From sequence record PV340561: a stretch of 64,000 nucleotides of DNA; one strand, written 5' to 3'. Positions 44,685-48,330 of this stretch are shown here, one piece after another. Each line of letters starts with the position of its first letter. The stretch's first letter is position 1. The notes under the pieces were generated by a model. The model did not search any database. It was not told where the DNA came from and was given only the letters and a program-made list of their open reading frames with translations. The translations under genes were made by a program, and so were the position numbers. The stretch is from Escherichia phage PhiR41_1.

Positions 44685-46793
44685 ATGTCTAAAAAACGTT
44701 CCATCAAAGAGGTTCAGGACTTCCGTGACAGTGTAAAACGAGTAGTCGCTCTCCTTTCAGGTAAAAACATCCCTGTTGCAGAACGAGGGGACGACGCTTA
44801 TGTACGCTATAATGATGATGGAGAGCCAATTCTCGTAAACATCCCATCAATCCCGGATAACGCAACACCGGCATTGATGAATGCTGTGCGCGGATTTCTC
44901 GATCATGAGGTTGCTCACATTTTGTTTACCGATATTCGTGTGTCCAACAAAATGAAAGAAAAAGGACGCGTTCCTTCCTGGTCGCTATGGAATGCCTTAG
45001 AAGACGTGTTCATCGAGCGAAAAATGGGTCAGGTCTTTAACGGAACAAGACGTAATCTGATGGCAACTCAGCGCCTTATAATCGAAAAAGTCTTTAAACC
45101 AAAGGCTTCAGAGGCTATTGCTTATTGTGGCAAAGATCAGCGCGCGCTTTTTCTAAACTTCTTTCTCTGTCCGGTTGTAAGAGCCTGGGATGGCCAAGCA
45201 CCGTTCGTAGATTTCATGGATGAATATTGGCCTGTCATTGAGAAACCAATTTCATTATTAAAAGAACATGGTATCGATGTGGCCGTGCGTAACATGTCTT
45301 GCACCGAGGATTGTGTAAAGGTGGCTGCGACCATAGCTAAGATCCTCAAAGACACTGAAAGTGAAAGCAAAGGTAAGGAGTCAGCTCCGGGAAAAACTTC
45401 CGATCCTTCAGACGCTGACCAGACGGATGCCTCTGGAGAAAACAATGAAGACAACGAAGATCATGAGACACCCTCATTGTTAGATAATCACAAATCTATC
45501 AAATCAGAATCACATAGTAAGCACAAACATGATAATAACGACAGTGATGATTCAGATAATTCTGAATCATCAGAAACAATATTCGATGATACAGAAAATG
45601 ATAAAGAGGTATCAGATTCTGATGCTTCTGATAACGCGGCGTCAGAATCATTAACCGCTGACCACGAAAAAAGAAAAACGACAGAAGACGGCTCTTCAGA
45701 TATTCCAACTACGTCAAAAATGAGTCTGGAAGAGGCTTTAGAGGAGCTGGATAGCATAGAAGATGAAGTCGGAGGCATGACAGAAGATGCTCTATCCGAA
45801 ACGATTAAAAGCGAGTTAACAGAAAGCTCGAAAAGTGAATACAGGCCATACAATCGCTCATACGACTTCATCGGCTCGATTGATCAGGCAGAAGCCCATA
45901 TCAAACGGCTTATTAAAACATTCTCCGATATTGATTTAGGAGGATATCCAATCAGCCGCTATCGCATCGTTCCTGAAGGCAACCAGCTCTTCGACAAATA
46001 TATTGAAAAGCATCTTTCGTCAGGTGTTTCGTCGACGCTGGCAAAAGACCTGGAGCGAGCAATAGCAAGCAGAAACAGAGTTCAGTTTATACCGGGCCAG
46101 CGTCGGGGGCGCATTCATGGTTCTAGTATCTACAGATTAGCAATGAATGATGATCGCGTGTTTCGTAAAAAAGAAGAATCTAAAGCCGTTAACGCCTGTG
46201 TTCAACAAGTGATTGATTTATCAGGTTCAATGAGTGGTATAACGATACAATTGGCTCTTGCAAGTGCATATACCATCGCCGATGCCCTTGATCGAATAAA
46301 TGTTCCCAACATTATCACCGGCTTCACTACATTTGGTAGTCATATGGCGGCAGGAGAACTTAAGGCTGTCAAGTATGAGTTCTCTCGCTTTGAATCTTTA
46401 ATGCTACCTATCATCAAAAATTGGAATGAAAAGGTAAATTCTCGCGAAGTTCGCTCACGTATGGGGTGCGTAGGCTACACATTCCCACTTCTTAATAACG
46501 TGGATGGTGAAAGCATAGCCAGCCTTGCATCGTTATTTTCCGGTCGCATGGAGGACAGGAAGATCATGCTTGTTCTGAGTGATGGCGAGCCGTTGGCTGT
46601 TGGGAGAGGTTTTGACGCTCATTTGCGTTCGGTTGCGAAGCAAATTGAAACGCAGACTGACATTGATTTGATGGCAATTGGCATCATGACTGACGCACCG
46701 GAGAGATTTTACGCAAACCATGCCCTGGTAACGAGCGTTGATAGTCTTGGTTCATCTGTAGTTACTGAACTATCTCGTATCATTTTGAAGTGA
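44685..46793 (+). CDS. vWA-domain protein (CobT-like) with acidic low-complexity linker
   Basis: MIDAS-like DLSGSMSG in the C-terminal region; long D/E/S-rich central segment; paired with a downstream AAA+ ATPase. Confidence 0.75.
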   Translation: MSKKRSIKEVQDFRDSVKRVVALLSGKNIPVAERGDDAYVRYNDDGEPILVNIPSIPDNATPALMNAVRGFLDHEVAHILFTDIRVSNKMKEKGRVPSWSLWNALEDVFIERKMGQVFNGTRRNLMATQRLIIEKVFKPKASEAIAYCGKDQRALFLNFFLCPVVRAWDGQAPFVDFMDEYWPVIEKPISLLKEHGIDVAVRNMSCTEDCVKVAATIAKILKDTESESKGKESAPGKTSDPSDADQTDASGENNEDNEDHETPSLLDNHKSIKSESHSKHKHDNNDSDDSDNSESSETIFDDTENDKEVSDSDASDNAASESLTADHEKRKTTEDGSSDIPTTSKMSLEEALEELDSIEDEVGGMTEDALSETIKSELTESSKSEYRPYNRSYDFIGSIDQAEAHIKRLIKTFSDIDLGGYPISRYRIVPEGNQLFDKYIEKHLSSGVSSTLAKDLERAIASRNRVQFIPGQRRGRIHGSSIYRLAMNDDRVFRKKEESKAVNACVQQVIDLSGSMSGITIQLALASAYTIADALDRINVPNIITGFTTFGSHMAAGELKAVKYEFSRFESLMLPIIKNWNEKVNSREVRSRMGCVGYTFPLLNNVDGESIASLASLFSGRMEDRKIMLVLSDGEPLAVGRGFDAHLRSVAKQIETQTDIDLMAIGIMTDAPERFYANHALVTSVDSLGSSVVTELSRIILK

Positions 46794-46888
46794 TTAGAAT
46801 AGCCTTAATGATAAGTAATCACTTACGATATTTGATGGTATATTTATATAAGAAGTTGAAAGCTCATTAGAAAACAAAGGAAAAACGC

Positions 46889-48124
46889 ATGACTACTACT
46901 GCACTGCAAAATGAAAAAAATCCTTCTGATTACCTTGTTTGCAAGTGGTGCGGAAAATCATTTCACTATTTTAAGTCCCATGTAGCCAATGGTAATTGCG
47001 AGGGCATTCCTGAGTCAGTAAAAGATGCCGATCCTGACACCGTACTGAAAATGTACACAACGCAGTTTCCAGATGAGCCAACGCTATCGAAAAAGGCACT
47101 TGATGCAATTCAAGCTAAACGTGCCGAGCAAAAAAGCGAAATGGCCAAATCATCTGGCGTGACCAATAGCCCAAGCTATACAGGCACAGTTGAGTACAAG
47201 ACAGATCTGGTCGCAGCTCACGAAATGCTAAATGTAACGGTGAAAGAACTCGGAACAAAACGTGGGACGCCGCTCATGGTTAGCGTCAACGTCAATACGC
47301 CGTTTCCAGAGTTCGTTCCAGAAGTGAAGAAGGGATACGTATATGGCGACTTCGAACTGATCAAAGACATTTTCATGATGCTTGAACTTGGCATACCAGG
47401 CTATTTGTGGGGTCATGCAGGAACAGGCAAATCTTCATTGCCTACACAACTATGTGCTTTGCTCAATCGTCCGTTAATCCGTGCCCAACATACAGCATCA
47501 ATGGAAGAGGCTCATGTTACGGGACAAATTCTGGCGCGTGATGGCTCTACGTATTTCGAGCCTGGTTTGCTTGCGCTCGCAATGAAGCATGGCTGGGTTT
47601 ACCTCGCGGATGAATACGACTTTGCGTTTCCACAGATTCTTGGCGTGTATCAGCCAGTGCTGGAAGGTGAAGCGTTGGTCATCAAAGAGGCGACTCCAGA
47701 ATGGCGTCGCATTACTCCGCATGAACGGTTTGCTTTCATTGGCACTGGCAACACGAACGGATCTGGTGATGAAACCGGCTTGTACCAGGGTACAAACATC
47801 CAGAACGCCGCTAACTTTTCGCGTTTTGGCATCGTTTCGAATGTGAAATACATGAGCAAAGAGGCAGAGATCAACATGTTGATAAATGCCGGCATCGTGG
47901 ATGAATACGCTGAAAAGATGGTTAAGTTTGCCGGTATCGTTCGCGATGGATACGAAGAACACAATATCAGCCAACCGATTGGGCCTCGTGAGCTTTTGTT
48001 GTCGGCCAAGATTGGAATGATGCGAGGCGATTTTGTGACAGGTATTGAGCGTTCTTTCATTAACAAACTCCCTTCAGCTTCTGCACAAGCGGCTCGTGAA
48101 GTTGTTCAAAAAATATTTGGTTGA
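46889..48124 (+). CDS. AAA+ ATPase (MoxR/CobS-like)
   Basis: Walker A GHAGTGKS, Walker B VYLADEYDF; N-terminal Cys-rich CKWCGK...H...C motif. Confidence 0.75.
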   Translation: MTTTALQNEKNPSDYLVCKWCGKSFHYFKSHVANGNCEGIPESVKDADPDTVLKMYTTQFPDEPTLSKKALDAIQAKRAEQKSEMAKSSGVTNSPSYTGTVEYKTDLVAAHEMLNVTVKELGTKRGTPLMVSVNVNTPFPEFVPEVKKGYVYGDFELIKDIFMMLELGIPGYLWGHAGTGKSSLPTQLCALLNRPLIRAQHTASMEEAHVTGQILARDGSTYFEPGLLALAMKHGWVYLADEYDFAFPQILGVYQPVLEGEALVIKEATPEWRRITPHERFAFIGTGNTNGSGDETGLYQGTNIQNAANFSRFGIVSNVKYMSKEAEINMLINAGIVDEYAEKMVKFAGIVRDGYEEHNISQPIGPRELLLSAKIGMMRGDFVTGIERSFINKLPSASAQAAREVVQKIFG

Positions 48125-48330
48125 TCGTGCGTAAAGGATGTTTCGGCTCTCTTATCGCTGCTTCTGAAACTGGTAAGGCTTGTCTGGTGTGTCCAGACAA
48201 GCCTTATTGTCACCAATCAGCAAAAGAAGTTGCGATTTCGATGCATGGGAAGTTCGTAGGCTTCCCAAATGACAAAATCAAAAAAACCAGAAAGGTAAAA
48301 ACACATGAAGGCACTGATGGTTCGAACTGA
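48121..48330 (+). CDS. small Cys-rich protein (zinc-ribbon-like), uncertain
   Basis: 69 aa ORF with C..C...C....C pattern (CLVCPDKPYC); overlaps neighbours at both ends. Confidence 0.3.
   Translation: MIVRKGCFGSLIAASETGKACLVCPDKPYCHQSAKEVAISMHGKFVGFPNDKIKKTRKVKTHEGTDGSN

Follow-up and report, generated by a model that had tools for sequence, protein, structure and literature searches.

Escherichia phage PhiR41_1 (sequence record PV340561), of which we analysed a window of 64,000 nucleotides (the whole stretch of DNA considered here), carries a pair of genes resembling those of the cobaltochelatase subunits CobT and CobS. The window is an SSU5/pHCM2/pMT1-type phage-plasmid, and the 3.6-kb region containing the pair is 98% identical to Escherichia phage Cyrano (E. 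coli LF82) and shares 74% DNA identity with Salmonella phage SSU5. The listing of open reading frames (ORFs) has three co-directional genes on the + strand, exactly where a first-pass annotation made from the sequence alone had placed them: a CobT-like gene of 702 amino acids (44685..46793), a gene for a CobS-like AAA+ ATPase of the MoxR clade (411 amino acids; 46889..48124), and a small basic ORF with four cysteines (69 amino acids; 48121..48330), which we refer to as the Cys4 gene. The next gene is dnaE, at 48305-51823. Public records label these genes 'cobalamin biosynthesis protein CobT', 'porphyrin biosynthesis protein' or 'AAA family ATPase'. The pair is a member of the viral cobST family, in which a MoxR ATPase accompanies a vWA protein with a metallopeptidase-type domain, and its features are consistent with a motor and adaptor that is almost certainly not a chelatase.

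The CobT-like protein consists of a zincin-like N-domain, an acidic linker, a shaft-like segment and a vWA domain. It matches the Pfam families CobT (residues 9-294, E 9e-27) and CobT_C, which is the vWA domain (residues 492-701, E 8e-82), as well as phrog_1576 (E 6e-299). The linker, at residues 226-400 (45360..45884, + strand), is disordered and rich in Ser, Asp and Glu, with 48% D+E+S and a net charge of -35; its length varies among relatives, which have 684-774 amino acids in total. [quoted passage not shown] In Brucella CobT, the stretch Q373-R413 inserts into the pore of the CobS ring (bioRxiv 10.64898/2026.07.21.739949). The MIDAS motif itself reads DLSGS (D511, S513, S515; 46215..46229, + strand) and is invariant in the family alignment, as is D607, while N605 and D633 are nearly invariant; residues D511, S513, S515, N605 and D633 align to D422, S424, S426, N518 and D546 of Brucella CobT. 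The vWA domain, the acidic linker and the DxSGS motif noticed in the first-pass annotation are thus all borne out. A vWA gene with a complete MIDAS and a charged linker adjoins an ATPase gene here, as in other MoxR-vWA pairs.

The feature missed by the first-pass annotation is an intact HExxH motif within a zincin-like N-domain. This CobT_N domain (residues 1-228; 44685..45368, + strand) was modelled by AlphaFold2 (AF2) with a predicted local distance difference test score (pLDDT) of 91.8 as a first helix, a three-strand sheet and a helical bundle, a topology that agrees with the description of Brucella CobT_N as an M48C-peptidase-like fold (bioRxiv 10.64898/2026.07.21.739949). The translation contains HEVAH (H74-E75-x-x-H78; 44904..44918, + strand), followed by EDVFIE (E106, D107, E111; 45000..45017, + strand), which is invariant in two alignments and provides a candidate third zinc ligand or 'Glu helix'; E106 lies 28 residues past H78, on the next long helix of the AF2 model. 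An exhaustive HMMER search with the N-domain returned 1124 cluster representatives at E <=1e-3, and we aligned the 127 full-length proteins among the best 150 of these. HExxH is present in 126 of the 127, and D73, H74, E75, H78, E106, D107 and E111 are each 99-100% conserved. The window protein is therefore a vWA protein fused to an N-terminal domain of metallopeptidase type, having both HExxH and a downstream Glu.

True CobT proteins differ sharply in this respect. Around a bona fide cobS in 80 fetched genomic loci we obtained 67 neighbouring cobT genes, which served as the comparison set because the cobT of a Cupriavidus plasmid is frameshifted (in Cupriavidus sp. EM10 plasmid p352-1, at 5080-6813, a bona fide cobT beside cobS is split over two frames by a frameshift or a sequencing error). 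HExxH occurs in none of the 67 genomic CobT proteins. At the equivalent positions 62 of 68 aligned sequences, the Brucella fragment included, have G/A/S, I/M/L/A and R, and the aligned stretch of the solved Brucella CobT, R76-G-L-G-D80-S-M-A-L-R85, lacks the motif. By contrast, 11 of 14 phage lineages keep HExxH, including podoviruses as distant as CRP-810 and a Cobavirinae phage. As a separate observation, the N-domain profile matched the anti-CRISPR protein AcrIIA26 (PDB 9zq6_B) with E 0.003 over 50 residues, in an N-x-x-E-D-x-F-I-E helix corresponding to residues ~96-144 (window 44970-45120), possibly by chance.

The CobS-like protein matches Pfam AAA_5 (E 2e-15) and phrog_249 (E 9e-107), and its AAA+ module (residues 141-411; 47309..48121, + strand) aligns to the solved Brucella CobS (PDB 9ujv) with E 4e-26; there are also matches to midasin, CbbQ and NorQ. 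Its nucleotide site is intact and of the MoxR-clade type, with a Walker A motif GHAGTGKS (47411-47434), Walker B residues D241/E242, sensor-1 N288, arginine finger R312 and sensor-2 R367. In 17 diverse homologues K181, D241, E242, N288, R312 and R367 do not vary, and the Brucella residues G71-S78 (with K77), D141/E142, N186, R210 and R271 align to G175-S182 (with K181), D241/E242, N288, R312 and R367 of the window protein. Residues of the interface between the two proteins can also be recognized: D73 and N124 of the adaptor and E404, Q407 and K408 of the ATPase align to the docking residues D80 and N130 of Brucella CobT_N and E308, Q311 and R312 of the CobS small subdomain. [quoted passage not shown] Its helix-2 insert is 4 residues shorter than that of Brucella CobS, and the protein ends before the last CobS helix.

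Relative to true CobS (328 amino acids), the window ATPase has ~140 extra N-terminal residues. The N-terminal cysteine cluster that the first-pass annotation had pointed out, along with the MoxR/CobS-like ATPase, lies in this region and proves to be a Ros/MucR-type zinc finger (residues 13-85, with C18, C21, H31 and C37; 46925..47143, + strand). C18, C21 and C37 are conserved together with H26 and H31. The spacing C18-x2-C21-x9-H31-x4-H is common to homologues down to 43% identity, and 93 of 111 homologues show the full pattern; members of the SSU5 clade, including the window, have another residue in place of the last His of the finger (Asn36 in the window), with Cys37 adjacent. The best PDB match of the finger profile is Agrobacterium Ros (2jsp, E 5e-4), Pfam ROS_MUCR matches 6 of 17 homologues, and AF2 folds residues 13-85 with a pLDDT of ~85. 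The likeness to Ros/MucR extends to the Y...YP.aP segment that follows the C-x2-C-x9-H-x4-H spacing; the differences are the Asn at the fourth ligand position and the fusion to an ATPase instead of an oligomerisation domain. They also include charge, the window domain having a net charge of -2 and an isoelectric point (pI) of 5.5 (family median -1 and 6.4), so that a basic DNA-binding surface is not found. The idea that the finger is a DNA tether of the motor was downgraded, since the domain is neutral to acidic, unlike the basic Ros. A search for the C-x2-C...H motif did not find the finger in ATPases from phages of Rhizobium and Stenotrophomonas or from CRP-810 and Cobavirinae phages; those of CRP-810 and the Cobavirinae have different, much longer N-terminal extensions.

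The scores obtained with the NCBIfam equivalog models place both proteins well outside the true cobaltochelatase subunits. The ATPase reaches 87.2 bits with the CobS model TIGR01650 against a cut-off of 558.55 (~7-fold below), and the adaptor reaches 63.4 bits with the CobT model TIGR01651 against a cut-off of 759.05 (~12-fold below), matching profile positions 198-594 only. No CobN was found among window ORFs of at least 200 amino acids, the largest of which encode the tape measure, tail tip, fimbrial usher, RecA-intein and DnaE proteins, and the pair is surrounded by replication genes instead of genes of the cobalamin pathway. In addition, the N-domain is degenerate in functional CobT, while the window protein has HEVAH. 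We conclude that the pair is homologous (paralogous) but not orthologous to cobaltochelatase CobS and CobT, and almost certainly not a chelatase. The first-pass annotation had left this question open, naming clear orthology within a complete cobalamin pathway as the observation that would overturn its own description; neither the orthology nor such a pathway context is seen in the window.

The distribution of the pair bears on the same question. A DNA search of PLSDB with the region matched 454 plasmids, and a protein-level search with the vWA domain found the block in 1026 plasmid records, from Klebsiella (347), Escherichia (229), Acinetobacter (147), Enterobacter (92), Yersinia (63) and Salmonella (49) among other genera; many database entries are 98-99% identical to the window pair. 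To our knowledge, E. coli, Klebsiella, Salmonella, Yersinia and Acinetobacter have neither CobN nor the aerobic corrin pathway. It has been proposed that viral CobST is an auxiliary metabolic module that hijacks the CobN of the host and thereby promotes cobalamin and, in turn, nucleotide synthesis (Liu et al. 2021, PMC8651126). The homology to CobS and CobT is real, all motor, shaft and MIDAS features are present, and CobN does exist in many hosts of other viruses with cobST (Rhizobium, Pseudomonas, roseobacters, haloarchaea, cyanobacteria). However, as far as we know most of the 1026 plasmid copies reside in hosts without it, the shaft-contact residues of Brucella CobS are replaced or deleted in the window ATPase, and neither the HExxH motif conserved in the adaptor nor the additional domain at the N-terminus of the ATPase occurs in true CobT and CobS. 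Together with the low equivalog scores (87 of 559 and 63 of 759 bits) and the lack of CobN among the window ORFs, this makes a chelatase module highly improbable. Compared with Brucella melitensis CobNST (9ujv, 9uka), the phage pair thus shares the nucleotide-site residues, five MIDAS residues, the position of the shaft, an acidic disordered linker, the CobT_N topology and several docking residues, but differs in lacking CobN and a cobalamin context, in having HExxH where true CobT has G/A/S-x-x-x-R, in the ~140-residue N-terminal region of the ATPase with its Ros-type finger, and in a linker about twice as long.

The third gene of the region starts with TTG at 48121, overlapping the TGA stop codon of the ATPase gene (TTGA); an alternative GTG start at 48127 is the one annotated in SSU5. 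Its 3' end overlaps the ATG of dnaE. Given these overlaps and the lack of a strong Shine-Dalgarno sequence ahead of the ORF, its translation is probably coupled to that of its neighbours. The product matches phrog_6337 (E 6e-45) and has a pI of 9.4 and a basic tail. Its reading frame is kept in SSU5, pMT1 and two Klebsiella lineages, with a ratio of nonsynonymous to synonymous divergence (dN/dS) of ~0.17, and by these sequence criteria the small ORF is a real gene. Taken together, the family matches and conserved motifs of the three genes and this dN/dS value lie well outside what chance would produce. C7, C21, C24 and C30 are invariant in 12 very divergent homologues, within the motif G-C-F-G-S...C-x2-C-x5-C at the N-terminus. 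In Aeromonas, Acinetobacter and metagenomic elements and in nickie, Rhizobium and Stenotrophomonas phages, the Cys4 gene encodes 167-226 amino acids and lies directly upstream of dnaE; since the motif is at the N-terminus of these longer homologues, the SSU5-type protein is a truncated version comprising the Cys4 domain and the basic tail alone. The Cys4 profile has no significant relative in Pfam or PDB. The first-pass annotation had called this gene a zinc ribbon; that it is a Cys-rich gene stands, with four invariant cysteines, while the ribbon fold is left unverified, as no relative is detectable.

Synonymous divergence (pS) is lower in the small ORF (0.30) than in the ATPase gene (0.73). 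An overlapping RNA or regulatory element was considered as the cause and rejected, as DNA identity to SSU5 is mosaic (window 46789-50000) and patches within dnaE are equally or more conserved: the ATPase gene has 47-70% identity in its 5' third, the small ORF 83-93% and the dnaE patches 90-99%. This mosaic suggests recombination between phage-plasmid lineages.

The genomic neighborhood of the pair is that of a replication module. An ORF of 70 amino acids (44374..44586, + strand; phrog_2627, E 3e-39) is the first of the rightward operon and faces a divergent repressor-like gene with a helix-turn-helix domain (43740..44126, - strand), which has weak HTH_19 and HTH_37 matches and is annotated as 'putative repressor' in Cyrano. 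The dnaE gene (48305..51823, + strand) encodes a DNA polymerase III alpha-like protein (Pfam PHP, DNA_pol3_alpha, finger and HHH_6) and lies downstream in the same transcription unit. Within the scanned stretch there is one + strand terminator-like site, located inside the ATPase gene, the total being at shuffled expectation, and there is none between the operon genes; promoter and terminator scans of the region gave nothing above shuffled expectation. In Cyrano, the neighbours of the pair are helicase, primase, ligase, integrase, repressor, DnaE, UvsY, a gp32-like single-stranded DNA-binding protein (SSB), exonuclease and RecA.

Because the search for loci in viral contigs returned relatives of at least 77% identity only, the more diverse contexts were taken from protein-encoding contigs and annotated phage records. 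A recurring order is seen in SSU5, pMT1, Klebsiella, Aeromonas, Rhizobium and Stenotrophomonas phages and in the lytic phage nickie: integrase and repressor on the opposite strand, a small ORF, the CobT-like gene, the CobS-like gene, in many cases a sigma-70 region-2-like gene, then the Cys4 gene and DnaE, followed by SSB, 5'-3' exonuclease and RecA in those loci whose fetched flanks reach that far. The synteny holds in relatives down to ~30% identity, including elements whose ATPases are only ~45% identical. In podoviruses with other replication apparatus (CRP-810, Cobavirinae) the pair has the reverse order, S then T, and is again found among early or replication genes.

Several further observations concern the individual genes of this neighborhood. 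The 70-aa ORF is conserved in pMT1 and Klebsiella, and distant relatives have ORFs of similar size at the same position with a faint '...G.GSLAV' ending. The sigma-70 region-2-like gene (~207-224 amino acids) lies between the CobS-like and Cys4 genes in many distant relatives, for instance in loci L005 (9237-9902), L089 (9182-9856), L093 (9254-9877), L177 (9819-10454) and L179 (9734-10378), and is not found in the window or other SSU5-type elements. The DnaE proteins of relatives (L089, 10387-13809; L091, 9739-13083) have a precomputed C-terminal match to uracil-DNA glycosylase (UDG; PF03167); Pfam at E <=0.01 found no UDG in the window DnaE, of which residues ~960-1172 are without a match.

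Phage MoxR-vWA proteins are an already described class. Liu et al. (2021) reported a cobST cluster that is widely distributed among the tailed viruses of bacteria and archaea (PMC8651126), and the paper on CRP-810 states that the function of the phage cobS is uncertain (PMC11288001). Iyer et al. (2021) described a phage MoxR ATPase whose vWA partner is 'fused to a N-terminal metallopeptidase domain' and suggested that the two act in virion assembly (PMC7824862), and Kaur et al. (2020) attributed to MoxR-vWA systems a mechanism in which the vWA domain captures a peptide and force is passed through charged linkers (PMC7159879). The window genes belong to this viral family, sharing with it the two-gene unit, the architecture of N-domain, linker and vWA domain, and the wide occurrence in Caudoviricetes. 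They differ from other members in gene order (T then S, as opposed to S then T in podoviruses), in the N-terminus of the ATPase, which is a zinc finger here and a long unrelated extension in CRP-810 and T5S1, and in being part of an operon with the Cys4 gene and dnaE, a context that the published CobN-hijack and virion-assembly proposals do not fit. Three refinements are not explicitly stated in the literature we searched: the contrast between the pseudo-peptidase of true CobT and the intact viral site, the Ros-type finger, and the Cys4 partner coupled to dnaE.

If the pair acted in virion assembly, it would help structural proteins to fold or assemble and would process them proteolytically, a role that has been suggested in jumbo phages and demonstrated for the developing tails of the Acidianus two-tailed virus. 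Besides the published proposal for just such a MoxR and metallopeptidase-vWA pair (PMC7824862), the very large structural proteins of the window phage, a tape measure of 1530 and a tip protein of 1551 amino acids, could be taken to favor this role. We nevertheless regard it as rather unlikely, because the pair is located in the early or replication module and not among head or tail genes in every lineage examined, and in the window it is probably co-transcribed and translationally coupled with dnaE.

The same linkage could be read as a sign of a metal-cofactor insertion chaperone, acting for example on the metal site of the DnaE PHP domain or on the Cys4 protein, with HExxH as a metal-handling site instead of a protease site. 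CobST, NorQD and CoxDE are MoxR-vWA systems that insert metals (bioRxiv 10.64898/2026.07.21.739949; PMC7159879), the adjacency to the Cys4 gene and to a PHP-containing DnaE is tight and conserved, and an accessory site would tolerate the loss of His ligands seen in some lineages. The pair is, however, also present in phages without DnaE or the Cys4 gene, and HExxH with a downstream Glu is the classic catalytic zincin signature, which leaves metal insertion unlikely. Among cellular pairs of this general type, NorQ/NorD, CbbQ/CbbO, RavA/ViaA and CoxD/CoxE combine a MoxR-clade AAA+ ring with a MIDAS vWA adaptor that exerts force on a client protein, as is proposed for the phage pair, and the window proteins have weak matches to CbbQ, NorQ and NorD, but in these systems the adaptors are without a zincin-like N-domain and the clients are metabolic enzymes already known.

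Expression data are available for Cyrano. In the LF82 lysogen, the published list of genes expressed above background includes the repressor and toxin-antitoxin genes but not CYRAN_47/48, and ciprofloxacin induces Cyrano 39-fold (PMC9928086). Both observations fit lytic or early genes and not genes of lysogenic conversion or defence. They bear on the link to conflict systems that the first-pass annotation had mentioned, in which the pair would act against host defence, degrading or remodelling immunity or nucleoid proteins, or would bring about superinfection exclusion by the prophage. MoxR-vWA cores do occur in NTP-dependent conflict systems (PMC7159879), and the vWA-MoxR-VMAP systems described there resemble the window pair in having MoxR with a vWA protein to which a peptidase is occasionally fused. 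A position at the start of an early operon fits host take-over, and the weak AcrIIA26 match, which may well be chance, points the same way. Set against this, PADLOC gave no match for the ATPase or the small ORF and a single 13.9-bit DrmE match within residues 347-533 of the CobT-like protein, overlapping the acidic linker, which is not meaningful, and the pair has no VMAP-like third component, effector array or effector domain, its third gene being the Cys4 gene. Moreover, across hosts as different as Rhizobium and Escherichia the pair is strictly conserved as core genes of a replication operon, an uncommon pattern for conflict genes, which turn over fast, and it is off the Cyrano lysogen list (PMC9928086). 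The link to conflict systems therefore found no support, and we consider such a role improbable.

The reading we prefer, and to which we assign about an even chance of being correct, is that the pair is a phage-type MoxR-vWA motor-adaptor, not a chelatase, which acts early in lytic development or during DNA replication to remodel a protein client, and which in most lineages is also likely to cleave that client by means of the zincin site. The conservation of nucleotide-site, MIDAS, shaft and docking residues makes a CobST-like assembly of motor and adaptor a reasonable expectation. By analogy with the solved Brucella CobST, the CobS-like protein would form an ATP-driven hexameric ring, the N-domain of the CobT-like protein would dock on the small subdomain of the ATPase, and the shaft segment would be threaded into the pore of the ring. 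The MIDAS-bearing vWA domain may then grip an acidic residue of the client, which ATP hydrolysis would remodel, and the N-domain of the adaptor, where its HExxH...E site is intact, is likely to cleave the client or a partner as well. The two genes are the first large ones in the rightward, repressor-controlled operon that runs through the coupled Cys4 gene into dnaE, and from this position we infer that the client is most likely handled early in lytic development or during DNA replication.

A number of observations weigh against this interpretation. Both His ligands are lost in three of the 14 lineages, namely Pseudomonas phage nickie (DSEISK), an Acinetobacter phage-plasmid (DQEVAK) and Stenotrophomonas phage BUCTxx99 (DREVST), and since the synteny of these three is the same, catalysis by the N-domain appears dispensable for at least part of the function. 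Judged from the sequences, the zincin site is ancestral and strongly maintained in most viral lineages, yet not indispensable. Pfam matched no peptidase family in 25 family members; likewise, sequence searches of the N-domain against PDB returned no peptidase family and fold searches with its model no solved peptidase. The pair occurs without DnaE in CRP-810 and in phages of the cobavirus type, and its linkage to dnaE may reflect lineage inheritance. The neutral to acidic charge of the finger domain makes DNA binding in the manner of Ros/MucR doubtful. Finally, the literature searched contains no experimental study of the pair from SSU5, pMT1 or pHCM2.

A broader form of the motor-adaptor reading can be put forward as a speculation, with only a small chance of being right. 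The phage-type CobS and CobT would belong to the core replication module of many tailed viruses as a machine in which an ATP-driven MoxR ring and a zinc-peptidase/vWA adaptor mature, load or clear proteins of the viral replisome, loosely like the AAA+-assisted metalloproteases that act on DNA-bound proteins. Cellular CobST would then be derived from it, having given up the peptidase site and acquired CobN as a client.

Two other features of the window were noticed in passing. The RecA-like gene at 54731-57136 (+ strand; 802 amino acids) is split by an intein carrying a homing-endonuclease domain of the LAGLIDADG type (Pfam Intein_splicing, LAGLIDADG_3 and RecA), and the RecA of an Ectothiorhodospira relative is also intein-bearing. 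Just upstream of the integrase gene (42642-43745) and the repressor gene lies a chaperone-usher fimbrial island (~36000-42100) of low guanine-plus-cytosine content (35-41%), which includes the usher (38781-41267) and an AraC-type regulator (41327-42109). In Yersinia pestis pMT1 (fetched locus L007, 1-1584) the caf1 F1-capsule operon occupies the equivalent position, which looks like a cargo hotspot of the phage-plasmid family.

In cyanophages, pelagiphages, roseophages and archaeal viruses, cobS and cobT are as a matter of routine classed with the auxiliary metabolic genes for cobalamin, and a subfamily has been named Cobavirinae. For the element studied here the cobalamin reading is untenable: the pair is a conserved core of the SSU5/pHCM2/pMT1 phage-plasmids, whose enterobacterial hosts are not known to have CobN, with an intact peptidase-type motif that is missing from all true CobT examined and a place in the dnaE operon. 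In the Cyrano record (OV696614; fetched locus 16001-19440, corresponding to window 44685-48124) the CobT-like gene is labelled 'dimethylbenzimidazole phosphoribosyltransferase' and the CobS-like gene 'cobalamin synthetase'. These labels mix up the Salmonella CobT/CobS nomenclature with the unrelated chelatase subunits of Pseudomonas and Brucella, as does the CRP-810 paper (PMC11288001). Together with 'porphyrin biosynthesis', they represent a systematic mis-annotation. Cyrano in E. coli LF82 and Salmonella phage SSU5 provide genetically tractable systems for this widespread viral machine. If it does act on replisome proteins, the 'cobS/cobT cobalamin auxiliary metabolic genes' of viruses would be mis-assigned across marine and gut viromes.

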